Source: Escherichia coli (lineage in GTDB: Bacteria > Pseudomonadota > Gammaproteobacteria > Enterobacterales > Enterobacteriaceae). Taken from it: 64,000 nt of DNA. Where the stretch lies: NCBI RefSeq assembly GCF_044647545.1, contig NZ_CP172818.1; one strand, written 5' to 3'. Made by a program: the position numbers and the translations under genes. The notes below the pieces were generated by a model. The model made no database searches. It was not told the DNA's origin and saw only the letters and a list, made by a program, of their open reading frames with translations. Positions 6,113 through 46,622 of this stretch are shown here, one piece after another. Positions within the stretch are counted from its first letter, which is position 1; the number at the start of each line of letters is the position of its first letter.

Positions 6113-7567
6113 TTACGCCATTAATGGCAGAAGTTGCTGATAGAGGCGACGGAACGTTTCTCGTCGTGGCTGATAAGCGGCATAACGCTGCGCATCTGGT
6201 AGATGCGACTGTTCTAACGGTAGCTGCGGCAACAACTCAATGAGCGATTTCTCTGGATTCGCCGCAATCTGCGCCAGCCTTGCTGCGCCCAGTGCTGGCC
6301 CCACATCCCCCCCCGTACGGTAATCGAGCTGCTGACCGCTGATATCCGCCAGCATCTGACGCCAGTACTCACTACGAGCCCCGCCACCAATCAGCGTAAC
6401 ACTTTGCGGTTTAATGCCGCAGGCATGTACGACATCCATGCCATCTGCCAGCGCATAACCCACGCCTTCCAGCACTGCTCGCGCCAGTTCATTAGCACCA
6501 TGTTGATGGGTCAAACCAAAGAAAACCCCCTTCGCCTGGGGATTGTTGTGTGGCGTACGTTCACCGGAAAGATAAGGCAGAAACCAGACAGGCTCGGTAC
6601 TTTCATCAGCCTGTTGAGCAGCCGCGATTAAAGCTGGAACATTGCTCAGACCGGTTAATTTTGCGGCCCAATCCAGGCAAGAAGCCGCACTCAGCATCAC
6701 AGACATTAAATGCCAACGCTGCGGGAGCGCATGGCAAAAGCTGTGTACGGCGCTTTCTGGCTTGCTTAAGAATCCTTCGCTGACAGCAAAATAGACCCCC
6801 GACGTCCCCAGCGATAACATTGCCTGATTAGCATCAACCATTCCCACACCAATCGCACCAGCTGCATTATCGCCACCGCCTGCGACAACAGGCACCGCCG
6901 CCATACCCCACGCTTTCGCAACTTCAGGTAGCAAAGCACCAGTAATTTCGCTGCCTTCGTATAATGCGGGCATCTGGTCACGAGATAAGTGGCAAGCCTG
7001 CAGCATGAGATCGCTCCAGTCACGCTTTGCGACATCCAGCCACATAGTGCCAGCTGCGTCAGACATATCGCTGGCAAACTCCCCCGTCATACGCAGACGC
7101 AAGTAATCTTTCGGTAATAATACTTTATCGATTTGACGGAATATCTCCGGCTCATGCCGCTGAACCCATAACAATTTAGGCGCAGTAAATCCGGGCATCA
7201 TCAGGTTGCCGGTAATCACCCGCGATTGCGGAACTCGCGCTTCCAGCAAAGTGCACTCTTGCGCACAGCGCCCGTCGTTCCACAAAATGGCAGGGCGTAA
7301 CACCCGTTGCTGAGTATCCAGTAAGGTTGCACCGTGCATCTGTCCGGCAATACCTAATGCTTTAACGTCTTGCAGAGAATGCTGAACGCCCAGAGCTTTC
7401 ATTGCGCGATCAGTTGCCTGCCACCACTGTTCCGGGTCTTGTTCCGACCAGAGTGGATGCGGGCGCGAAACGGTCAGCTTTTCCGTTTGCGCAGCAACCA
7501 CCTCACCCTGCTCATTGAGCAAAATAACTTTTACGCCCGAGGTGCCAAGATCTATCCCGATATACAT
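6113..7567 (-). CDS. xylB: Xylulokinase
   Basis: 484-aa FGGY-kinase ORF (MYIGIDLGTSGVK...), downstream of xylA. Confidence 0.95.
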   Translation of the reverse strand: MYIGIDLGTSGVKVILLNEQGEVVAAQTEKLTVSRPHPLWSEQDPEQWWQATDRAMKALGVQHSLQDVKALGIAGQMHGATLLDTQQRVLRPAILWNDGRCAQECTLLEARVPQSRVITGNLMMPGFTAPKLLWVQRHEPEIFRQIDKVLLPKDYLRLRMTGEFASDMSDAAGTMWLDVAKRDWSDLMLQACHLSRDQMPALYEGSEITGALLPEVAKAWGMAAVPVVAGGGDNAAGAIGVGMVDANQAMLSLGTSGVYFAVSEGFLSKPESAVHSFCHALPQRWHLMSVMLSAASCLDWAAKLTGLSNVPALIAAAQQADESTEPVWFLPYLSGERTPHNNPQAKGVFFGLTHQHGANELARAVLEGVGYALADGMDVVHACGIKPQSVTLIGGGARSEYWRQMLADISGQQLDYRTGGDVGPALGAARLAQIAANPEKSLIELLPQLPLEQSHLPDAQRYAAYQPRRETFRRLYQQLLPLMA

Positions 7568-28807: not shown

Positions 28808-28915
28808 ACTACGAATTGATATGTTCCTTGCTGTAACGTCGCTTCCACGCAGCTGGCGTTAAGCCGGTGTGTTTGCGAAAAATCTGCCGGAAATAGCCGA
28901 CGTCATTAAACCGTA
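28808..28915 (-). pseudogene. AraC/XylS-family regulator C-terminal remnant (HTH fragment, frame interrupted upstream)
   Basis: Minus-strand translation ...LAVVGLFQAIRFNDVGYFRQIFRKHTGLTPAAWKRRYSKEHINS* fits the AraC C-terminal HTH pattern; an in-frame TGA lies just upstream. Confidence 0.35.
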
Positions 28916-29123
28916 TTGCCTGGAACAGGCCGACAACGGCGAGTCACTGCATAACCTGTGGCTGCCCGCCGATGCGCCATTTACGACATTTGAAGGTAAT
29001 GGATTGTTCCGCCATAAGATCTTAATCCAGGCACCGGGTTACCGGTATGAACAGAGCAATCCAGAGCAGCAACCGCTGTGGCATTACGACAGTGCGCCAG
29101 CCGCACCGACATCCACCGGTGAA

Positions 29124-29864
29124 TTAAAAACGCCAGCTCACCCCGGTGACAAAGGTAAAACTCTCATTACGATCAATCATCGGGCTGTCGGTAATCTCTT
29201 CCGGCAGCTCGCTGTATCCTGCGCTCGCCATCAATACGACGTGCTCTCCTATCGGGTATTTTGCCGTCAGGCTGACATAGGGCACCCAGGCATCCTGCGC
29301 GGAATAACTTGCCAGACCGCTACGACGGGACTCACTCTCTGAAATGCCATAGTAATAGTCACTGAAATTCTCGTCATAATAGAGAACGCCCAGCGCAGGT
29401 GTCAGCGACAGACGACCTATCTGCATTTTGTGGAATACCGATAGCTCCCCCACCCAGCCGTTGCTGTTATCCAGAACGTCCGCAGCTGCAGAGGCTTTCA
29501 CGGTTCCCCAACGCTCGTGGTGATACCAGGCAACCCCCGCCATAGCCGTACTATCACGCTTATCAAGCTGTTGCATGGCATAATCGTCATTATCGGTAGG
29601 GTCAAATTCCAGCGGCATCCAGGATGCGGTCAGGCTAAGTTCATTTTTTTCACTTTGCGACAGAATAAAACCTAACGTGGTCTGACGAACATAAAAAGTA
29701 TCACCTTCATAACTAATCAGCGGAATTGCCTTCGTATTTTCATTATAACCGCGATAAGGCGATTCATTATAAGCCGCACCAGCACCAATGGATAATTCAG
29801 AAGCAGTTGCGCTTGCCATAAAAGGCAACGCAAATAACGCCACAATATTGCGATTAATTAACAT
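29124..29864 (-). CDS. yiaT: Outer membrane protein (MipA/OmpV family)
   Basis: 246-aa ORF with signal peptide, beta-strand-like alternation and C-terminal F. Confidence 0.88.
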   Translation of the reverse strand: MLINRNIVALFALPFMASATASELSIGAGAAYNESPYRGYNENTKAIPLISYEGDTFYVRQTTLGFILSQSEKNELSLTASWMPLEFDPTDNDDYAMQQLDKRDSTAMAGVAWYHHERWGTVKASAAADVLDNSNGWVGELSVFHKMQIGRLSLTPALGVLYYDENFSDYYYGISESESRRSGLASYSAQDAWVPYVSLTAKYPIGEHVVLMASAGYSELPEEITDSPMIDRNESFTFVTGVSWRF

Positions 29865-29987
29865 GTCCGGTATTCCATTTTAAAATAAGATAAAAAAGAG
29901 TCGGCATAATAATGCTTACAATTTCTCCGGTGCAAGATTCATATTTATATAGTAATATATAAAATTATATATAATTGGGCTGTTGCG

Positions 29988-30962
29988 ATGACAAAATTAC
30001 AACTTAAGTACCGGGAGTTAAAAATTATCTCGGTAATCGCTGCCAGTGAAAATATCAGCCATGCCGCGACTGTACTTGGCATCGCACAGGCCAACGTCAG
30101 CAAATATCTTGCTGATTTTGAATCAAAAGTGGGTTTAAAAGTCTTTGACCGAACCACCCGGCAGCTGATGCTCACACCTTTTGGCACCGCGCTGTTACCG
30201 TACATCAACGACATGCTGGACAGAAACGAGCAACTTAATAATTTTATTGCAGATTATAAGCATGAGAAACGTGGTCGGGTCACCATCTACGCCCCAACCG
30301 GCATAATTACCTATTTATCCAAACATGTAATCGATAAAATTAAAGATATCGGTGATATCACCTTATCGCTAAAAACCTGCAATCTTGAGCGTAATGCCTT
30401 TTATGAAGGCGTCGAATTTCCTGATGATTGTGATGTTTTAATCAGCTACGCTCCACCAAAAGATGAATCGCTGGTTGCCAGTTTTATTACCCAATATGCC
30501 GTAACCGCTTATGCCAGCCAGCGCTATCTTGAGAAACATCCCATTAGCCGTCCTGACGAACTCGAACATCACTCCTGTATTTTGATCGACTCGATGATGA
30601 TCGACGACGCGAATATCTGGCGCTTCAACGTCGCCGGGAGTAAAGAGGTGCGGGATTATCGCGTGAAGGGAAATTACGTTTGCGACAACACGCAATCTGC
30701 GCTGGAGCTGGCACGAAATCACCTGGGGATTGTGTTTGCGCCAGACAAAAGTGTGCAGAGCGACCTGCAAGACGGCACGCTGGTGCCCTGCTTTCAGCAA
30801 CCCTATGAATGGTGGCTGGATCTGGTGGCTATCTTCCGTAAACGGGAATACCAGCCCTGGCGGGTCCAGTATGTGCTGGATGAAATGCTGCGTGAAATTC
30901 GCCACCAGCTTGCTCAGTCGCAGCAACTGCGGCCTGAACAAGCGGCGGAAAGCGAAGATTAA
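29988..30962 (+). CDS. yiaU: LysR-family transcriptional regulator
   Basis: 324-aa ORF with N-terminal LysR HTH; divergent-convergent with yiaT/yiaV. Confidence 0.9.
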
Positions 30963-32095
30963 TGATCGAGATAAAGGTAATGCACCCAGCTGGTCATGCG
31001 TAATAGCACTTTGCGCATCACCGAGACATGGCTGAAATGATCAGAGTAAACCGCCACCTGGGCGTAAATACCGTCTGGTAAAGCGCTCAAATCAGTGTGC
31101 TCATCCAGTTCAATGGTCGCGATAACGCCATCTGAACCCGGCGCTGTGTTTAACGTCTGTAAGGTGCCGGTCGACTGATAAGCTCCGCCGGGAACGGCTG
31201 GACTAATGGCTGCCAGCTTACCGCTGAATACCTTACCTGGCAGAGCATTAAACACCACTTCCGCATCGTCGCCAGGAGCCAGTCGCAGCAAGGAGTTCTG
31301 ACGGAACTGCGCCACGATTTGTCGTTTCTGATCGGGTATAAACACCATCACCGGACGTAGCGGCAGCGACGCGGCATAGGTACCCGGACGAATCAGTACC
31401 TGGGTCACATAACCATCGCTCGGCGCACGCACTATCGTCTGCTCAAGGTTATATTTTGCTTCCGCGAGCTGTGCTTTCAGGCTGGCGATTTGAGAATGTT
31501 CACCCAACACCAGGCTATCCAGCTGGCTCTGGATCTGTTTTTGTTCCGCCGCCGATGACTTCACGGAGGCTTCCTGCGCCAGATAATTTTGCCGCGCCAC
31601 ATCGATATCGCGTTCTGAAAACGGGTTTACTTTCGCCTGGCTGCCACGTGCGTAACGCTGATACTCTTTAGCGAATTTATCCCGCGTGGCCTTTGCCTGC
31701 TGAGTATTCGCCGCCATCTCATCTAACTCTGCGCCCAACGCCCGCTGTTTATGTTCTGCGGTAACGATATCCGCCATCAGCCGATCCACCCGCGCCTGAT
31801 AACGCGTCGGGTCCAGTCGAAATAGCACCTCACCTTTTTTAATCAGCGTATTTTTCTTATCCGTCACTTCAATCACCACACCAGTCACCTGTGGGACAAC
31901 AGGAATAGAAATAACCGCTTTTTGCGCTTTAAAGGTATACGGATGGTTATAGTTCATTAACAGAATTAGACCGCTGACAATAAATATGCCACCCAGGGCC
32001 GCTGTGGGAATGGTCCATTTATTTACAGGAATTTTGAAGATCTTAAACATTGCCCATGCAAAAGCCACATAGGTCAAAATAATCAGTAAATCCAT
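30959..32095 (-). CDS. yiaV: HlyD-family membrane fusion protein
   Basis: 378-aa ORF, N-terminal TM, coiled-coil middle; paralog of yibH. Confidence 0.9.
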
Positions 32096-32100
32096 AAGTA

Positions 32101-32326
32101 TTACTCGGCAGAAGAGGTCTTGATGTCGGCGAGCTGTTTCTCCAGCCCGGCAATACGCTGTTGTAGTTGCACAACGCCGGAGGAGTCATGGTTTTGCATT
32201 CCCCATCCCCGCTCCGGGCGGTAAAGCGTGGCCCAAATCCACAAAATGGCCAGATAACATGCAGCGTAAAAAGACTCACCCAACCAGCAACATGAATGGC
32301 GTCGGCATGAGGATGATTACGTTTTG
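32101..32326 (-). pseudogene. yiaW: yiaW (DUF3302 small membrane protein), C-terminal part, separated from its 5' part by IS1
   Basis: Translation ...[46 protein letters not shown] matches the YibI paralog; reading frame runs into the IS1 left end. Confidence 0.8.
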
Positions 32327-32351
32327 GTGATGCTGCCAACTTACTGATTTA

Positions 32352-32657
32352 GTGTATGATGGTGTTTTTGAGGTGCTCCAGTGGCTTCTGTTTCTATCAG
32401 CTGTCCCTCCTGTTCAGCTACTTGACGGGGTGGTGCGTAACGGCAAAAGCACCGCCGGACATCAGCGTTATCTCTGCTCTCACTGCCGTAAAACATGGCA
32501 ACTGCAGTTCACTTACACCGCTTCTCAACCCGGTACGCACCAGAAAATCATTGATATGGCCATGAATGGCGTTGGATGCCGGGCAACCGCCCGCATTATG
32601 GGCGTTGGCCTCAACGCGATTTTACGTCACTTAAAAAACTCAGGCCGCAGTCGGTAA
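32352..32657 (+). CDS. insA: IS1 InsA-like ORF (body in frame with ...[23 protein letters not shown]...; N-terminus out of frame with the canonical GTG start at 32381)
   Basis: ORF-track translation; canonical-looking start GTG 32381 [14 protein letters not shown] reaches TGA at 32423. Confidence 0.7.
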
Positions 32658-33079
32658 CCTCGCGCATACAGCCGGGCAGTGACGTCATCGTCTGCGCGGA
32701 AATGGACGAACAGTGGGGCTATGTCGGGGCTAAATCGCGCCAGCGCTGGCTGTTTTACGCGTATGACAGGCTCCGGAAGACGGTTGTTGCGCACGTATTC
32801 GGTGAACGCACTATGGCGACGCTGGGGCGTCTTATGAGCCTGCTGTCACCCTTTGACGTGGTGATATGGATGACGGATGGCTGGCCGCTGTATGAATCCC
32901 GCCTGAAGGGAAAGCTGCACGTAATCAGCAAGCGATATACGCAGCGAATTGAGCGGCATAACCTGAATCTGAGGCAGCACCTGGCACGGCTGGGACGGAA
33001 GTCGCTGTCGTTCTCAAAATCGGTGGAGCTGCATGACAAAGTCATCGGGCATTATCTGAACATAAAACACTATCAATAA
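32576..33079 (+). CDS. insB: IS1 InsB transposase frame
   Basis: 167-aa ORF ...[21 protein letters not shown]...[48 protein letters not shown]. Confidence 0.85.
32631..32641 (+). promoter_or_regulatory. IS1 programmed -1 ribosomal frameshift motif (A6C) joining insA and insB
   Basis: ttaaaaaactc at the insA/insB junction. Confidence 0.6.
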
Positions 33080-33094
33080 GTTGGAGTCATTACC

Positions 33095-33204
33095 TTACGT
33101 TTTTTAGCAATCAGGTAGGGAATATCATGTAAAATAATAATCCCATAGAATATCACCAGAAATACAAAAATAAGCACTCCCAGTGCAAAATAGTCCAGGA
33201 ACAT
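33095..33204 (-). pseudogene. yiaW: yiaW 5' part ([37 protein letters not shown]...), separated from the 3' part by IS1
   Basis: Reverse complement of 33104-33204 encodes the N-terminus homologous to YibI; joining the two parts minus one TSD copy restores a 109-codon frame. Confidence 0.8.
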
Positions 33205-33317
33205 ATTTCCCTCAAAGAATATAAAAAAGAACAATTAACGCATATTATGAAATGCCATGATGCAGTGCAACTTCCTTATTTATATAACGACATATTGTTT
33301 TTTATATACTTTCTGAA

Positions 33318-33530
33318 ATGTGCTGTCTGGTTTTTCAACAGGACGAGGTTTATCATATTGAAATAGTGGAACTATTGGCCAAACTAATGAATAACTCCAG
33401 TAAAACATCCACAGTACAGATTAAGCGTATTAAACCTTCAATTATCTACCGTTTATTGCTGATTGGCCTCGGATCACCAATGGTGATTTACGGCCTGGTT
33501 CGCCCGCTAACCATCGAAACGCGAGATTAA
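33318..33530 (+). CDS. Hypothetical small ORF with a C-terminal hydrophobic segment (possible small membrane protein)
   Basis: 70-aa ORF; internal Met gives a 47-aa peptide MNNSSKTSTVQIKRIKPSIIYRLLLIGLGSPMVIYGLV...; no recognisable homology. Confidence 0.2.
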   Translation: MCCLVFQQDEVYHIEIVELLAKLMNNSSKTSTVQIKRIKPSIIYRLLLIGLGSPMVIYGLVRPLTIETRD

Positions 33531-33638
33531 ACGCCCGGCAATACACGCCGGGCAGCTTCTGCCAGAAACGCACTTCTGTTGGCGTAGTCTGGGTTATTGC
33601 GCACGTAGGTTTAAAACGTAAATTGTAACAACGTGCGC

Positions 33639-33735
33639 TTTGTTTATGCCGGATGCGGCGTGTACCTTATCCGGCCTACGGTCAGGTTCCCGTAGGCATG
33701 ATAAGACGCGTAAGCGTCGCATCAGGCAATGAATA
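33639..33735. repeat. REP elements downstream of aldB
   Basis: gccggatgcggcgtgtaccttatccggcctacgg and gacgcgtaagcgtcgcatcaggc palindromes. Confidence 0.5.
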
Positions 33736-33758
33736 CCCAATGCGACCAGCTTCTTACA

Positions 33759-36803: not shown

Positions 36804-38648
36804 TTATTTTTCCGGAAATAATAATGCGTCGCGCAATAAATGATCATTTCCACGACGACGCGTAAAGCCAATGCGGTCAAAATATTCCAGAATCTGAATT
36901 GCCAGCTTTCGGCCTACGCCTAAGCGATCGCGGAAATCCGCCGCGCAGGTTGAACCACACTCCTGATCGAGATCGCGGATCATATTGGCAAACTCGACAA
37001 TCCGATCGTTACGGTAATAACGATCTTTGACGATCGCGGTAATTATTCCTTGCTGCGCCGCCTGACGTAGCGTCAGACGCATTGCCTGCTCGTCGGTTCC
37101 CGTCTCTTTTGCCAGGTCTCGCACCCACCACGGTTCGTCACCAAACAGTGGCTCTGCTTTTTGCCAGATGGCCTGCTGCTCTTCGCTGAAGCCCGCTTTG
37201 TGATCCGGCAGATGCAGCCAGCCGTGATGACTGAGGATGTCACCGCTTTCACGCATCTTTTCAATCAGCAACAGTACCAGCGCTTCATCTTCCATTGGCA
37301 ACGCCATACGTCGCAGACGTTCGCGCCCAGGACCAGGTTCATCGCGATGTTTCTCATGATAAGTCGCTAATGTGTCGAGAATTTTCCGCTGCCAGCGGGC
37401 GGCAACTGGCGCATTCAACAAGCTGTAACCAGCCTGAATATAGCCAGGCTGTTGCAGCAGTTCGCGCATCCCTTCGCCGTTGAGCTGCCGTGCCCAGGCG
37501 AAATCCGCAAGGTTAACCGCGCCGCGTTCCAGATGAACAGATAACGCATCGGCATCGCTCTGCGCCCGTGCAAGAGACGCCAGCCATTGCAGATATTCCG
37601 GCTTACGCTTACCGCGACGCGGCGGGTTAAGCATCACCACACGCGCCCCCGCCAGCGTGTTGCGGGCCGAGATATCGCGCAGCACTATGCGATCGTTATC
37701 CGCCAGCCACAGCGGCGTGTCGAACACCAGCTCGGCAAGGTTATCTTCCAGCAGCGAAACGCGTCCCGTAACGTGGCTGGCGGCGTGGTGAATATGCAGT
37801 GGCTGCCACTGGGTCAGCGGTGTATGGGTTTGAAGCTCGACTATCACCCGCGTAAACGGCTCCGGCGGCACATCGGCAAGCAGCCAGTCGCCACGGTTAA
37901 TCTGCTCTTTTTCCGCATCACCCGCGATGTTAAGCGCGATACGCTGCCCGGCATGGGCAGTTTCTGTTGGCTGATTTTGCGCATGTAGCGCACGCACGCG
38001 CATCGGTTTATTTACACCAGTCAGCCAGATTGAATCGCCTACCTTCACTTCCCCGCTTAACGCCGTACCGGTGACGACCAGCCCGGCACCTTTTACGGTA
38101 AATGCGCGGTCGATCGCGAGGCGGAAACTATGTTGGCTGGCGTGTTCACGTTCTGGTAACTGAAGCAAATGCTCGCGCAGGGCATCAATTCCCCGACCTT
38201 CGGTTGCTGCGGTGATAAACAGTTTTGCCTCAGCAAAACCGTATTCCCGCAGCACCTCCTTTACCTGGCGTTCAACCTCATCAACACGCGCTTCGTCCAC
38301 GCGATCGGCTTTGGTCAGCGCCACTGTCAGCATCGGGTTACCGGTCAGCTGCAAAATCGCCAGATGCTCACGGGTCTGTGCCATCACGCCGTCATCGCAC
38401 GCCACCACCAACAGCGCGTGATCGATACCACCAACGCCCGCCAGCATGTTGGAAAGAAACTTTTCATGACCGGGAACGTCGATAAAACCCGGAACACGAC
38501 CATCCGGCTGCGGCCAGTAGGCATAGCCGAGATCGATGGTCATGCCGCGCTTTTTTTCTTCCGGCAGACGGTCGGCATTTACGCCAGTAATCGCCTGCAA
38601 TAAGGTTGTTTTGCCGTGGTCAACGTGTCCGGCAGTCGCAATAATCAT
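36804..38648 (-). CDS. selB: Selenocysteine-specific translation elongation factor
   Basis: 614-aa ORF starting [16 protein letters not shown] (GTPase G1 motif). Confidence 0.95.
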
Positions 38649-40036
38649 TTCAACAACATCTCCAAAAACCGTTGCTCATCTTCAAGGCAGCGTAAATCCA
38701 GCCACAATCGTCCGTCATAAATACGACCAATCACCGGCACTGGCAATTCACGCCAGCGGGCGGCTAATGACTCAAGGTGGCTACCGCGTCCATCATGGGG
38801 TGTAAACGTTAATGCCGCGCTCGGCAGGCGATCAACCGGCAGCGAACCACTGCCAATCTGCGAAAGACATGGCATAACCTGTACCGCAAACTCCGCGCCG
38901 TAATGTGCGGCAAGGGGAGCCTGTAAACGTTGTGCCTGGATTTGAATGACCTCTGCGCTGCGGGTAAGCAGGCGCAGGGTCGGTAATTTTTTACTCAGAG
39001 CTTCAGGGTGTAAATAAAGACGCAACGTGGCTTCCAGCGCCGCAAGGGTCATTTTATCCGCGCGTAATGCACGCTTCAGCGGGTGGCTTTGCAGTCGGGC
39101 GATCATCTCTTTTTTACCAACAATAATTCCTGCCTGCGGCCCGCCTAACAACTTGTCGCCGGAGAAGCTCACCAGACTGACGCCCGCCGCAATCAACTCC
39201 TGCGGCATTGGCTCTTTCGGCAAACCGTACTGGCTAAGATCGACCAGCGAGCCACTGCCTAAATCAGTCACTACGGGGACATCCAGCTCTTTGCCGAGCG
39301 CCACCAGTTCCGCTTCATCTATCGCTTTGGTGAATCCCTGAATGCTGTAGTTACTGGTATGTACTTTCATCAACAGCGCGGTATTTTCATTCACCGCCTG
39401 GCGATAATCATTAGCGTGCGTGCGGTTGGTGGTCCCCACTTCGTGTAGGGTGCAGCCTGCCTGACGCATAACATCGGGAATACGAAACGCGCCGCCAATC
39501 TCCACCAGTTCGCCGCGAGAAACCACCACCTCTTTCCCGCTGGCAGTGGCCGCCAACATCAATAACACCGCCGCCGCATTGTTATTAACGATACAGGCAT
39601 CTTCCGCCCCCGTAATACGGCACAGCAGCTGCGCCAGCGCCCGATCGCGATGTCCGCGTCCGGCGTCGTCCAGATCGTACTCGAGGGTCACTGGCGAACG
39701 CATAGCCTTCGTAACGGCTTCCACCGCGGCTTCCGCCTGTAAAGCTCGCCCAAGGTTGGTATGCAGCACGGTTCCCGTCAGGTTGATTACCGGACGCAGC
39801 GCGCTTTGCGCCTCTTTCGTCAACCGGGCATCGACTTCTTGCGCCCAGTTTTCACACCACGCGGGAAGCGTCTGGCTGTCTCGAATCACTTCTCGCGCTT
39901 CGTCAAGCATCTGACGCAGCAATTCCACCACGCGGGTGTGACCATAAGTATCACGCAAAGAAAGGAAGGAGCTATCGCGCAATAAGCGATCAATAGCCGG
40001 AAGTTGACTATAGAGGGAACGCGTTTCGGTTGTCAT
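38645..40036 (-). CDS. selA: L-seryl-tRNA(Sec) selenium transferase
   Basis: 463-aa ORF; 4-nt overlap with selB. Confidence 0.95.
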
Positions 40037-40133
40037 AGGAAACCTGGCTGATCAAGGCCCTCTCACACGGAGAAGGGCGTTTAACATAACCACGGATTGT
40101 AACGTGAGATGGGTCAGGAGGACATATCGCGCA

Positions 40134-40742
40134 TCAAGCCTTTGGCGGTTCGGTGCGAGCAAAACTTTCGCGGCTAAACAGGTTTTCGACCAGTTTGACT
40201 AAGTGTGGGCGGTCGACACACCAGCCTGGCGCAACGCGGCGGAAATTGAGATATCCGACGGCACAGGCAATGGCGATAGTCGCCAGATTGACCGTATCGG
40301 TTTTGAGCGTGCCATCGACCAGATATCCTTCCAGCACATCCAGACTGCGGTTGATTTTCTCCCGCTGGCGTAACAATTCATCTTCAGACTGCTGCGCCGC
40401 CGGACGCGCCTGTTCACGCACCGATACCAGCCCGGCATCCATAATGCCATCCGCCAGTGCCTCAATTTTGCGCACTCGCAACGACTCCAGCGGATCGCGC
40501 GGCAACATCGCCGGAGCGACATTCATTAATTCAATATATTCAGCGATGATCGCCGAATCAAACCAACATTCACCCTCTTCGGTCACCAGCACCGGCACTT
40601 TCCCTAACGGGTTAAATTGCGCCACGCCGTTGTCCGCGTTATAGGGCAGTTCATTAATAAATTCGAAAGTTATGCCCTTTTCTAACAACAGAATAGAAAG
40701 TTTGCGTACAAACGGGCTGGTGTAGCTACCGACGAGTTTCAT
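40134..40742 (-). CDS. yibF: Glutathione S-transferase-like protein
   Basis: 202-aa ORF with GST fold pattern. Confidence 0.88.
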
Positions 40743-40970
40743 GCCGAGTCCTTTGTGCGAGGAAAAATATCAGTATGGCCTGGTGATGGGAAAAAGGGCA
40801 GAAAATGTTGATGGTTTGTTACTTCCCAATAAATCACATATTTATCATGGTGATATAAATATTTTCCTAATTGTTCTTATCTGACAGATATCTCACTTAA
40901 GGCTTTCTTATAAATCTGTAGGGTTTCGCCTGTCAGCAGACAAATAACCCGATAAAACAAGGATGAGCAG

Positions 40971-43900
40971 ATGAGCGGAAAACCGGCGGCGCGTCAGGGC
41001 GACATGACGCAGTATGGCGGTAGCATTGTCCAGGGTTCAGCCGGGGTACGTATTGGTGCCCCCACCGGCGTGGCCTGTTCGGTGTGCCCCGGCGGAGTAA
41101 CGTCCGGCCATCCGGTCAATCCGCTGCTCGGTGCAAAGGTCCTTCCCGGCGAGACAGACATCGCCCTGCCCGGCCCGCTGCCGTTCATTCTCTCCCGCAC
41201 CTACAGCAGTTACCGGACAAAAACGCCCGCGCCGGTGGGGAGCCTCGGCCCCGGCTGGAAAATGCCTGCGGATATCCGCTTACAGCTGCGCGATAACACA
41301 CTGATACTCAGTGATAACGGCGGCAGAAGCCTGTATTTTGAGCACCTGTTTCCCGGTGAGGACGGTTACAGCCGCAGCGAGTCACTCTGGCTGGTGCGCG
41401 GCGGCGTGGCGAAACTGGATGAAGGTCACCGGCTGGCCGCACTCTGGCAGGCGCTGCCGGAAGAGCTTCGCCTGAGTCCGCATCGTTATCTGGCGACGAA
41501 CAGTCCACAGGGGCCGTGGTGGGTACTCGGCTGGTGTGAGCGGGTGCCGGAGGCGGATGAGGTGCTGCCTGCGCCGCTGCCGCCGTACCGGGTACTGACC
41601 GGGCTGGTGGACCGCTTCGGGCGCACACAGACGTTCCACCGTGAGGCTGGCGGCGAATTCAGCGGCGAAATCACCGGCGTGACGGATGGCGCAGGCCGTC
41701 ACTTCCGGCTGGTACTGACCACGCAGGCGCTGCGGGCAGAAGAGGCCCGGCAGAAGGCCATTTCCGGCGGGACGGAACCGTCCGCTTTTCCTGATACCCT
41801 GCCGGACTACACGGAATATGGCCGGGACAACGGTATCCGTCTGTCTGCCGTGTGGCTGACACACGACCCTGAATACCCGGAGAATTTACCTGCCGCGCCG
41901 CTGGTGCGCTATGGCTGGACGCCACGCGGCGAACTGGCGGTGGTGTATGACCGCAGCAATACACAGGTGCGCAGCTTTACTTACGATGATAAATACCGGG
42001 GCCGGATGGTGGCGCACCGTCACACGGGCCGGCCGGAAATCCGTTACCGTTACGACAGTGACGGGCGGGTGACAGAACAGCTAAACCCGGCAGGCTTAAG
42101 CTACACGTATCAGTATGAGAAAGACCGCATCACCATCACCGACAGCCTGGACCGCCGTGAAGTCCTGCATACCGCAGGCGAAGGCGGCCTGAAGCGGGTG
42201 GTGAAAAAGGAACACGCGGACGGCAGCGTCACGCAGAGTCAGTTTGACGCGGTGGGCAGGCTTAAGACACAGACGGATGCCGCAGGCCGGACAACAGAAT
42301 ACAGCCCGGATGTGGTGACGGGCCTCATCACGCGCATCACCACGCCGGATGGCAGGGCATCGGCGTTTTACTATAACCACCACAGCCAGTTAACGTCAGC
42401 CACCGGGCCTGACGGGCTGGAAATACGCCGGGAATATGATGAATCCGGCCGTCTGATTCAGGAAACCGCCCCTGACGGCGATATCACCCGCTACCGTTAT
42501 GATAATCCACACAGTGACTTCCCCTGCGCAACGGAAGATGCCACCGGCAGCCGGAAAACCATGACGTGGAGCCGTTACGGTCAGTTGCTGAGCTTCACCG
42601 ACTGTTCCGGCTACCAGACCCGTTATGACCATGACCGCTTCGGGCAGATGACGGCGGTGCACCGCGAGGAAGGCCTGAGCCAGTGCCGCGCATACGACAG
42701 CCGTGGACAGTTAATTGCCGTGAAAGACACGCAGGGCCATGAAACGCGGTATGAATACAACATCGCCGGTGACCTGACCGCCGTCATTGCCCCGGACGGC
42801 AGCAGAAACGGGACACAGTACGATGCGTGGGGAAAGGCCATCCGTACCACGCAGGGCGGGCTGACCCGCAGTATGGAATACGATGCTGCAGGACGGGTCA
42901 TCCGCCTGACAAACGAAAACGGCAGCCACACCACCTTCCGTTACGATGTACTCGACCGGCTGATACAGGAAACCGGCTTTGACGGCCGCACACAGCGTTA
43001 CCACCACGACCTGACCGGCAAACTTATCCGCAGCGAGGATGAGGGGCTGGTCACCCACTGGCACTATGACGAAGCAGACCGCATCACGCAGCGAACGGTG
43101 AATGGTGAAACCGCAGAACAGTGGCGGTACGACGAACGCGGCTGGCTGACACAAATCAGCCATCTCAGCGAAGGGCACCGGGTGACGGTGCATTACGGGT
43201 ATGATGAGAAAGGCCGCCTGACCGGTGAGCGCCAGACGGTGCATCATCCGCAGACGGAAGCACTGCTCTGGCAGCATGAGACCAGACATGCGTACAACGC
43301 GCAGGGGCTGGCGAACCGCTGTATACCGGACAACCTGCCCGCCGTGGAATGGCTGACTTATGGCAGTGGTTACCTGGCAGGGATGAAACTCGGCGACACA
43401 CCGCTGGTGGAGTACACCCGCGACCGCCTGCACCGGGAAACGCTGCGCAGCTTCGGCCGTTATGAACTCACCACCGCTTATACCCCTGCCGGGCAGTTAC
43501 AGAGCCAGCACCTGAACAGCCTGCAGTATGACCGCGATTACACCTGGAACGACAACGGCGAACTCATTCGCATCAGCAGCCCGCGCCAGACCCGGAGTTA
43601 CAGCTACAGCGACTCCGGCAGGCTGACCGGCGTTCACACCACCGCAGCGAACCTGGATATCCGCATCCCGTATGCCACGGACCCGGCAGGTAACCGCCTG
43701 CCCGACCCGGAGCTGCACCCGGACAGCACCCTCAGCATGTGGCCGGATAACCGTATCGCCCGTGACGCGCACTATCTTTACCGGTATGACCGTCACGGCA
43801 GGCTGACGGAGAAAACCGACCTCATCCCGGAAGGGGTTATCCGCACGGATGATGAGCGGACTCACCGGTACCATTACGACAGCCGGCACCGGCTGGTGCA

Positions 43901-44750
43901 CTACACGCGGACACAATATGCAGAGCCGCTGGTCGAAAGTCGCTATCTTTACGACCCGCTGGGCCGCAGGGTGGCAAAACGGGTGTGGCGGCGTGAACGG
44001 GACCTGACGGGCTGGATGTCGCTGTCACGGAAACCGGAAGTGACCTGGTACGGCTGGGACGGCGACCGCCTGACCACGATACAGAACGACAGAACCCGCA
44101 TCCAGACGGTTTATCAGCCGGGGAGCTTCACACCACTCATCAGGGTCGAAACCGCCACCGGTGAGCAGGCGAAAACGCAGCGCCGCAGCCTGGCGGATGC
44201 GCTTCAGCAGTCCGGCGGCGAAGACGGTGGCAGTGTGGTGTTCCCGCCGGTGCTGGTGCAGATGCTCGACCGGCTGGAAAGTGAAATCCTTACTGACCGG
44301 GTGAGTGAGGAAAGCCGCCGCTGGCTGGCATCGTGCGGCCTGACGGTGGCGCAGATGCAAAACCAGATGGACCCGGTGTACACGCCGGCGCGAAAAATCC
44401 ACCTGTACCACTGCGACCATCGCGGCCTGCCGCTGGCGCTTGTCAGCACGGAAGGGGCAACAGAATGGTGCGCAGAATACGATGAGTGGGGCAACCTGCT
44501 GAATGAAGAGAACCCGCACCAGCTGCAACAGCTTATCCGCCTGCCGGGTCAGCAGTATGATGAGGAGTCCGGCCTGTATTACAACCGCCACCGCTATTAT
44601 GACCCGCTGCAGGGGCGGTATATCACTCAGGATCCGATTGGGCTGAAGGGGGGATGGAATTTTTATCAGTATCCGTTGAATCCGATATCAGACATCGAGC
44701 CCCCTGGGTTTATCTATGTGGGAGGATGCAAAATCGGGGGCATGTACTAA
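40971..44750 (+). CDS. rhsA: Rhs-family polymorphic toxin core protein: N-terminal PAAR motif, YD repeats, Rhs core; very short 12-residue tail after an EPPGF motif
   Basis: 1259-aa ORF; N-terminus [26 protein letters not shown] (PAAR); many YD/YxYD repeats; ends ...[39 protein letters not shown]. Confidence 0.92.
44238..44686 (+). repeat. Rhs core 3'-end repeat, copy A (inside rhsA)
   Basis: About 450 bp near-identical to 46623-47069 at a constant offset of about 2384 bp. Confidence 0.9.
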
Positions 44751-45754
44751 TGGTCTTTGCGGCATATCAGCTGTGATGAGAGGTGCATAAGTTTTTCATA
44801 GACCGCATATGACGCCTTAATAACAATAAAATTAAAATATATTTTCAATAAAATCAATAGCCAAATAAAATAAATAAATAAATTTTCCCTGCACCTAGAA
44901 CGTGGAGAAAGTTAGTACATACTATGGATGCAATAGCATTGACATAATGGTGGGACGAATATTTTCACTTCGACTAATGTGGTAGATATCAGATTTGGAC
45001 GAAATATTTTAAGCAAAGATGAAAATAATTAAAATAAACAACGAATAAATACCACCCCATTAATAAACAATAGATAACCACGGGAAGGAAATAACAAACG
45101 GAAAAGGATCCGATGCCAGAGTTATCGGTAATATTAAAAAAAAAAATATAAATAAAATAAATAAATTTTATTTAGCACTCCCATTTTTTTTACACAACAT
45201 GGCCATAATAATAATTTTAAAATAATAATGACGGGAAAGAGAGAAAGAAGGTAAACTGTAAAAGGATTACAAAAATTTGGTCTACAAATACAGGTTATAG
45301 TAAAAAAATATTTTTTAGAATTTATTGTATCTTTTTTTTTTTACAACAACACAGGTCGCAGTGTAATTACAGAGATATTAAAATAATGCTCAAATTTATG
45401 AAGCAGTGAGGCAGAAGAATATACATATAAACGCTTCATTAAAACAAGTGGGTAATTTGGTTAAAAATAAACTAACATTGAATTACAATATATGTTAAAA
45501 TCAGGCAACCAAAAAGAAAAAATATAAAATATGATTAACAACAAGTCTTGTTGAAGGCACCATTCACTCAGACCAAATTGCTGGTGGGGTTTTTATTAGA
45601 AAATAGGCAAAAATGATGGGGTAATTCTGAATTTTGGCCACGGAAAATAAGTATGTAAGGATAATCAAACATCGTGTGCGCTGATGGCAGAGTAGGTGGA
45701 GGACTCCAGACAGTCAAACGATAAAAAAAGATAGCCTTTATGGAGGCTCCTGCA
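44751..45754. other. Extremely AT-rich block without ORFs of 60 aa or more between rhsA and yibA; contains A11 (45136-45146) and T11 (45332-45342) homopolymers
   Basis: Visibly low GC and low complexity; ORF track shows no ORF on either strand. Confidence 0.8.
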
Positions 45755-46597
45755 ATGTCAAATACATACCAGAAAAGAAAGGCAAGTAAAGAGTATGGTT
45801 TATATAATCAATGTAAGAAACTAAATGATGATGAATTATTTCGCTTACTTGATGATCACAATTCCTTGAAAAGGATTTCATCTGCCAGAGTATTACAGTT
45901 AAGAGGTGGGCAAGACGCTGTTAGATTGGTAATTGAGTTCTGCTCTGATAAAAATTATATCCGTAGAGATATCGGAGCATTTATACTCGGGCAAATAAAA
46001 ATTTGCAAAAAATGCGAAGATAATGTGTTTAATATTTTGAACAATATGGCATTGAATGATAAGAGCGCTTGCGTTCGAGCTACGGCAATCGAGTCAACGG
46101 CTCAGCGATGCAAGAAAAACCCAATTTATTCACCTAAAATAGTAGAACAATCTCAAATTACTGCTTTTGATAAATCGACTAATGTCAGACGTGCTACAGC
46201 ATTTGCTATTTCTGTTATCAATGATAAAGCAACAATTCCACTATTGATTAATCTGTTAAAAGATCCAAATGGAGATGTCAGAAACTGGGCCGCATTTGCA
46301 ATAAATATCAATAAATATGATAATAGTGATATTAGGGATTGTTTTGTGGAGATGCTTCAGGATAAAAATGAGGAAGTCCGTATTGAAGCAATAATCGGAC
46401 TTTCCTACAGAAAAGATAAAAGGGTTTTATCTGTTTTATGCGATGAGTTAAAAAAAAATACTGTTTATGATGATATCATTGAAGCTGCGGGTGAATTAGG
46501 TGATAAAACGCTACTTCCTGTTTTAGATACTATGTTGTACAAGTTTGATGACAATGAAATTATAACTTCCGCTATTGATAAGCTGAAGCGTTCATAG
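45755..46597 (+). CDS. yibA: HEAT-repeat protein YibA
   Basis: ORF 45740..46597; start set at MSNTYQKRKASKEYGLYNQ giving 280 aa; repeated helical-repeat pattern. Confidence 0.85.
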   Translation: MSNTYQKRKASKEYGLYNQCKKLNDDELFRLLDDHNSLKRISSARVLQLRGGQDAVRLVIEFCSDKNYIRRDIGAFILGQIKICKKCEDNVFNILNNMALNDKSACVRATAIESTAQRCKKNPIYSPKIVEQSQITAFDKSTNVRRATAFAISVINDKATIPLLINLLKDPNGDVRNWAAFAININKYDNSDIRDCFVEMLQDKNEEVRIEAIIGLSYRKDKRVLSVLCDELKKNTVYDDIIEAAGELGDKTLLPVLDTMLYKFDDNEIITSAIDKLKRS

Positions 46598-46622
46598 CGT
46601 GAGTTGCCTATGCACAGTGGGG

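Follow-up and report, generated by a model that had tools for sequence, protein, structure and literature searches.

At the rhsA locus of this Escherichia coli genome, the main rhs gene, as assembled, reads as a full-length protein that ends in an altered motif and a 12-residue tail. In the window (the whole 64,000-nucleotide stretch of DNA that was analysed; contig NZ_CP172818.1 of RefSeq assembly GCF_044647545.1), this ending appears to be produced by one inserted base at the edge of a garbled patch, and a second garbled patch lies between two orphan rhs fragments further downstream. Uncorrected noisy sequence in the assembly, of non-biological origin, is very probably the best explanation of both patches. 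We observe directly that the frame is shifted, which tip underlies the garbled sequence, how far the patches extend and what errors they contain, and that other genomes lack them; from the pattern of the errors we infer a technical cause, and the technology involved.

The main rhs ORF occupies positions 40971–44750 on the plus strand and encodes 1259 amino acids, with its TAA stop codon at 44748–44750. The surrounding gene order (selB-selA-yibF, rhs, yibA ... yibH-yibI-mtlA) is that of the rhsA locus. The Rhs core, consisting of a DUF6531 N-terminal region, YD/RHS repeats and an RHS-associated core (40971–44698, plus strand), is intact and in frame. Residues 1–1246 match positions 1–1260 of the 1261 positions in the NCBIfam profile RHS_core (NF041261), with 2627 bits against a cutoff of 2000, and the core is therefore complete up to the motif. 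NCBIfam Rhs_assc_core and YD_repeat also match this ORF, as do the Pfam families RHS_repeat (12 times), RHS and DUF6531. The long YD/RHS-repeat core that characterizes Rhs / YD-repeat polymorphic toxins is present in the main ORF. An alignment spanning this core (window 38300–44830) shows 99.5% nucleotide identity to the rhsB gene (WP_022646258.1) of NZ_CP123059.1. Downstream, the yibA gene, encoding a HEAT-repeat protein (45740–46597, plus strand), is intact and clean (NCBIfam PRK09687, 463 bits).

The end of the core carries two DPxGL-type motifs. The first (DPIGL, aa 1221–1225, 44631–44645, plus strand) is undamaged, and 17 residues separate it from the second motif downstream. At the second, the sequence-only reading had described an altered motif followed by a tail of 12 residues, and the DNA does read this way: the 10-residue motif segment spans aa 1238–1247 (nt 44682–44711), and the tail follows at 44712–44747, ending with the stop (44712–44750 in all, plus strand). 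Alignment to L001, the related locus of the closest genome, shows how this reading arises. Where NZ_CP123059.1 has GAC ATC GAC CCC CTG GGT TTA (DIDPLGL), the window has GAC ATC GAG CCC CCT GGG TTT (DIEPPGF; 44691–44711, plus strand), the DIDPLGL codons being broken by an inserted G at 44699. Since this one extra G shifts the frame inside these codons, EPPGF reads on alignment as a +1 frameshift through DIDPLGL and not as a substituted motif. With G44699 taken out, the second motif becomes DPLGL again, and the next frame of the window past the motif, out of frame with the 12-residue tail, gives the start of a common RhsB-type DUF4329 tip, the same as in NZ_CP123059.1.

As written, the main ORF thus reads as a protein that has neither a toxin domain nor the catalytic aspartate of the second DPLGL motif: past the motif, it contains just 12 out-of-frame residues in place of an in-frame C-terminal toxin domain. 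The importance of this aspartate for autoproteolysis, which had been assumed beforehand, is sound, as the aspartate of the second DPxGL motif is catalytic in Rhs1 of P. laumondii, where a D1338N substitution abolishes autocleavage of the C terminus (PMC8636562). The same study describes the two-motif arrangement, with its 17-residue spacing, at the end of the RHS-associated core (PMC8636562). The proposal that the window holds a toxin-less allele, perhaps lacking a cleavage site, therefore holds for the ORF as written, but this does not appear to be an allele, as the DPLGL codons are intact out of frame.

The most literal reading of the ORF would be a functional allele, in which a divergent EPPGF motif is followed by a minimal 12-residue tip, the protein serving either as a cargo-less plug or cage, or as a substrate for tip replacement by recombination with the orphan fragments. 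The ORF is indeed open for 1259 codons, its core is complete according to the RHS_core model, and further downstream there are orphan tips attached to homologous core ends. However, EPPGF and the tail are the exact out-of-frame reading of a known motif and tip, separated from it by one inserted base, and remnants of a toxin and an immunity gene follow directly. The catalytic aspartate would be lost (PMC8636562), an identical product is absent from the public protein collection, and the junction occurs in no complete E. coli genome. We consider this reading extremely improbable; the frameshift alignment effectively refutes it.

It had been suggested that correcting a single base could restore a long tip, and removal of G44699 does restore the start of the tip, but the restored frame stops at 44788–44790. 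Only 20 more correct residues are gained before a 3-base deletion (at ~44765), substitutions and this stop are encountered. After the inserted G, 65 bases agree with the NZ_CP123059.1 locus until the next difference is reached, and about 180 further differences are spread downstream of the G across the tip and yhhH. Because of these further differences, the frameshift appears as the leading edge of a 0.9-kb corrupted stretch and not as a lone single-base error.

This stretch, corrupted patch 1, covers 904 bases (44699–45602, plus strand) and contains a garbled RhsB-type C-terminal toxin domain (DUF4329) and yhhH. Aligned to L001 6400–7214, it matches 660 of the 815 reference bases, with 60 substitutions, 50 insertion events (184 bases) and 67 deletion events (95 bases), which corresponds to 0.42 errors per reference base. 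Between 44750 and 45740, no ORF of at least 60 aa was found on either strand. Remnants of the toxin can nevertheless be traced from 44701 to 45135 (plus strand) by tblastn of the NZ_CP123059.1 tip against the window and by three-frame translation, as peptides that hop between frames with stops among them (TAYDAL..NKINSQ, EKVS.Y, IDNHGKEITNGKG, RV.GN). The intact tip of the NZ_CP123059.1 ortholog belongs to Pfam DUF4329 (PF14220, E = 2.9e-39); this score is the ortholog's, the window itself holding only the garbled DNA copy with its 660 of 815 reference bases matched.

Its immunity gene, yhhH, has fared similarly. Remnants located by tblastn of the NZ_CP123059.1 YhhH and by DNA alignment (45302–45650, plus strand) include KKIFFR, NIKIM, NLVKNK and LVEGTIHSDQIAGGVF, followed by a clean GKNDGVILNFGHGK and the stop; the last ~30 codons alone are clean. 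A cognate immunity gene can thus still be recognised, although numerous indels and stops interrupt it. In addition, patch 1 contains an internal duplication (45053–45310, plus strand), in which local alignments place a ~105-bp reference segment (L001 ~6808–6913), comprising the end of the toxin and the start of yhhH, twice in tandem. The two copies (45053–45143 and 45198–45310) have different sets of errors. The first contains a 42-base exact match (45068–45109, corresponding to L001 6831–6872), while the second is much noisier. Such a duplicated segment with independent errors is what would be expected of mis-joined noisy reads.

Patch 2 (47718–49215, plus strand) lies between the two orphan rhs fragments and consists of a garbled spacer and an ISAs1 (H-repeat) transposase gene. 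Aligned to L001 9332–11281, it has 1406 matches, 55 substitutions, 22 insertion events and 253 deletion events (489 bases), so that 1950 reference bases have shrunk to 1498, with 0.30 errors per reference base. The GC content has dropped to 0.275, compared with 0.366 in the reference, with a local minimum of 0.16. One low-complexity ORF of 75 aa (48610–48837) is the only ORF of at least 60 aa that survives here. That ISAs1 and the non-coding spacer are garbled in the same way as the toxin and its immunity gene points to a process indifferent to gene function.

The kinds of errors in the two patches are informative as well. Indel events outnumber substitutions in both (117 versus 60 in patch 1, and 275 versus 55 in patch 2). 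Natural divergence is expected to show the reverse. The deletions in patch 2 are base-specific and strand-asymmetric, removing 57% of the G, 36% of the C, 17% of the T and 7% of the A bases of the reference (G versus C, p = 4e-8; T versus A, p = 6e-8). The same tendency is visible in patch 1, where the deleted fractions are 25% for G, 13% for C, 8% for T and 5% for A. Such a strand-asymmetric spectrum of G deletions is not expected of natural decay or recombination, nor of any hypermutation mechanism known to us. A diversity-generating retroelement was considered and rejected: these elements substitute adenines, while in the patches A is the base least often lost, and most events are indels.

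One could also imagine that the AT-rich accessory DNA of this rhs element underwent a real, localised hypermutation with G-biased deletions. Both patches do fall in low-GC accessory DNA of a single rhs element, and each has a start or an end near an IS boundary or a repeated rhs core end. Accessory DNA next to them with the same AT content is untouched, however, other genomes show no intermediates, and we know of no mechanism that produces such a spectrum, which makes hypermutation highly implausible. Equally hard to credit is the corresponding biological scenario, in which the patches are real and a strand-biased G-deletion process recently erased the main Rhs toxin–immunity module together with the neighbouring ISAs1 but spared DNA only a few bases away, so that a cargo-less cage devoid of its catalytic aspartate would result.

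The sequence surrounding the patches is nearly free of such differences. Over the stretches of the window that can be aligned to NZ_CP123059.1, excluding the two patches and an 18-base block at 44660–44677, there are 3 mismatches and 0 gaps in 26,384 bases. Further stretches aligned to this genome are 100% identical over 2,954, 2,520 and 4,098 bases, and others are 99.8–99.9% identical, gaps being very rare throughout. When the alignment of 38300–51546 to L001 is binned per 100 bases, all bins with more than 3 differences fall within 44600–45600 or 47700–49300; beyond the patches themselves, they reflect the 44660–44677 block and a small number of mismatches that follow patch 2 within 30 bases. 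Between the patches (45600–47700), every 100-base bin has at most 3 differences from L001. Neither AT-richness nor repeats alone explain where the patches lie. Equally AT-rich DNA in yibA (45800–46600) and at 50000–50400 is clean, by which AT-richness as the sole cause was rejected. Repetitiveness as the sole cause was rejected in turn, as the IS1 copy at 32323–33094 is clean and the RhsB tip with yhhH is mostly single-copy (a median of 1 place per genome, and single-copy in most genomes).

The 18-base block deserves separate mention. At 44660–44677, the window encodes NFYQYPLNP, as do orphan fragment 1 and the RhsA of K-12, whereas the main gene of the closest genomes, such as NZ_CP123059.1, encodes NLYGYQLNP. 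This small difference looks real; its origin could lie in gene conversion among the repeats of the core end, or in a collapse of repeats during assembly beside patch 1. The same block accounts for the outcome of a search for an identical natural allele: with the corrected junction as query, the best match reached 98.1%, and the difference lay in the NFYQYP / NLYGYQ block. The exact core–tip junction of the window was found in none of the complete E. coli genomes (best 98.1%).

Other genomes hold the intact counterpart of patch 1 in abundance and the garbled forms not at all. At least 80% of the length of the clean tip with yhhH is covered in 2,683 complete E. coli genomes, and the identity reaches at least 95% in 2,732 of the 3,007 genomes with a match. 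At the rhsA locus, an Rhs protein with an RhsB-type DUF4329 tip, together with YhhH, is annotated in 30 of 30 records among the matches listed. For the patches themselves, 5,426 complete E. coli genomes were searched with a distant BLAST of each patch, and garbled forms were found in 0 of them. The best match to patch 1 in this set has ~71% identity over 53% of the query, and the best match to patch 2 has ~73% identity over 73% of the query. On this basis we rejected a natural donor as the source of the divergence, nothing in the 5,426 genomes exceeding these ~71–73% identities over 53–73% of the query. Intermediates of a decay of the patches were likewise absent from these 5,426 genomes. An exact 41-mer from patch 1 had zero matches in metagenome contigs and GTDB representative genomes, and the exact 1259-aa product is not on record in the public protein and gene-position collection.

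These searches bear on the most serious biological alternative, a real pseudogenisation, in which the main rhs gene is frameshifted and its tip and immunity gene have decayed or, at minimum, the G insertion is real. The result would be a 1259-aa Rhs cage devoid of cargo and of the second catalytic aspartate, or no useful product. Such an outcome would fit the habits of rhs loci, which gather pseudogenes and truncated fragments (two orphans are present here), and several incomplete RHS and transposase genes are annotated as pseudogenes in related genomes. The 65 clean bases that follow G44699 mean, moreover, that the insertion could in principle be a genuine, separate mutation. Yet a divergence of ~30–40% over 0.9 kb and 1.5 kb, between flanks of 99.9–100% identity to a strain whose copies are intact, needs a very long time or a donor lineage, and such a donor is absent from the 5,426 genomes. 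Indel-dominated, strand-asymmetric and G-specific deletions, along with a duplicated segment whose copies carry independent errors, are unlike natural decay, and the same pattern is seen in an ISAs1 copy and in spacer DNA. We therefore regard pseudogenisation as unlikely, though less so than the other biological readings.

Corruption of the assembly would account for what is seen on each of these points: the patches have sharp bounds with near-identical flanks, their error spectrum is unnatural, and they are absent from independent assemblies. The events may then be reconstructed as follows. The main rhs gene of this strain would be of the ordinary, widespread form: its tip would be RhsB-type (DUF4329), with yhhH and, after it, yibA downstream. 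Beginning at the second DPLGL motif, 44699–45602 would consist of low-quality, uncorrected sequence, as would the ~1.5 kb at 47718–49215. The likeliest source would be a raw or very-low-coverage noisy long read that bridged or filled the region, or an equivalent non-biological corruption. Within patch 1, the inserted G44699 would be the first error, shifting the frame in the DIDPLGL codons and thereby creating EPPGF, the 12-residue nonsense tail and the stop. If the technical cause is right, the real protein would be ~1411 aa long, would have both DPxGL motifs and cleave itself normally, and its DUF4329 toxin would be neutralised by YhhH.

The two orphan rhs fragments lie on either side of patch 2. 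Orphan fragment 1 (46639–47148, plus strand) consists of an intact end of the RHS-associated core (RHS_core positions 1111–1261) with a short, truncated tip, and its counterpart is annotated as an incomplete RHS pseudogene in a related genome. Orphan fragment 2 (49285–49758, plus strand) is intact, starts right at a DPLGL-containing motif and has a Tlde1-type tip. It is followed by an intact Imm57 immunity gene (49763–50284, plus strand), and the region of orphan 2 and Imm57 is 99.83% identical to L001 11268–13612. In a related genome, RefSeq annotates these genes as a tlde1 domain-containing protein and an Imm57 family immunity protein. The sequence-only reading had stated that both orphans keep the canonical motif, and DPLGL is indeed encoded at 47080–47094 and at 49306–49320. 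Because orphan 2 has no full core upstream, expression of its toxin would need recombination with the main gene.

Elsewhere in the window, several differences from NZ_CP123059.1 were noted. The yiaT-yiaU-yiaV-yiaW region (28912–33756) is ~98.3% identical to K-12-like genomes and forms an insert of another type between flanks close to NZ_CP123059.1, which carries a different island at the counterpart position (an AraC regulator, an MFS transporter, GH127, HicAB and a type I restriction enzyme). Near yiaW/yiaV, this region contains the clean IS1 (32323–33094), which is 99.2% identical to the IS1A reference with 1 gap; the compared genome G6/7 has its IS1 in yiaU instead. At ~35410, between aldB and yiaY, a Fic family protein gene of ~1.37 kb that is present in NZ_CP123059.1 is absent from the window, leaving a clean junction. 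Between yibL and lldP, the window has ~96 bases (57388–57484) where NZ_CP123059.1 has ~6 kb, comprising a 4.8-kb gene for a YadA-like adhesin and an upstream pseudogene. Finally, yiaV/yiaW (30961–32325) and yibH/yibI (50742–52345) are paralogous pairs, each encoding an HlyD-family protein and a DUF3302 protein, with ~70% DNA identity.

For users of this assembly, the practical consequence is that 44699–45602 and 47718–49215 are unreliable, and that gene, pseudogene or motif calls inside them are not to be interpreted biologically. This applies to the truncation of the Rhs protein as well as to the apparent loss of yhhH and of the ISAs1 transposase. If the allele were real, it would provide a naturally cargo-less Rhs lacking the cleavage aspartate, and thereby a natural experiment on the loading and opening of the Rhs cage.

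The closest known counterpart of the locus is that of E. coli M25631H (NZ_CP123059.1), which encodes an intact Rhs of 1411 aa and YhhH (WP_022646258.1 / WP_022646259.1), compared with the 1259 aa of the window. Both share the arrangement selB-selA-yibF, rhs, yhhH, yibA, orphan, ISAs1, orphan-Tlde1, Imm57 and yibH, and a strain named ST648 is among the other genomes with the locus layout of the window. In M25631H, the tip ends in RVHGNM and is followed by yhhH and then yibA, while the window has the extra G44699 and the ~180 further differences. By this comparison, the underlying gene appears to encode an ordinary E. coli Rhs protein that has an RhsB-type DUF4329 tip and is accompanied by YhhH.

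The RhsA of K-12 (b3593) resembles the window up to the motif and differs from it thereafter. It is encoded at the same chromosomal locus, with yibA downstream, its core alignment (window 38787–44683) is ~97% identical, and the 12 residues just before the motif are identical to those of the window. At 1377 aa, it is 118 aa longer than the 1259-aa ORF, which bears out the earlier statement that reference RhsA proteins are over 100 residues longer. Its tip (DPLGLEVFPRPFPL..., ~135 aa) is unrelated to the tip remnants of the window, and no alignment extends beyond the motif. The K-12 RhsA tip was consequently rejected as the identity of the post-motif region, which lacks meaningful similarity to it and is of the RhsB type. 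The label rhsA fits the locus but does not describe the tip, which is of the RhsB type (DUF4329/YhhH).

With Rhs1 of P. laumondii and its TcC-type aspartyl autoproteolysis (PMC8636562), the window shares the succession of DPIGL, 17 residues and DPLGL codons. Cleavage of Rhs1 has been shown by experiment, whereas the protein of the window is known from its sequence, and its called frame reads EPPGF. As for the patches, they resemble uncorrected noisy long reads in an otherwise polished assembly, with an abrupt, indel-dominated error of 30–42% beside flanks of high identity. The change in length of patch 2 from 1950 to 1498 bases and the duplicated segment with independent errors add to this likeness. 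Early raw nanopore reads had an error rate of 38.2% (PMC4691839), which is of the same order as the 30–42% in the patches of the window; the figure given there is an overall rate for raw reads, and the G-biased deletion signature seen here is not documented in that study.
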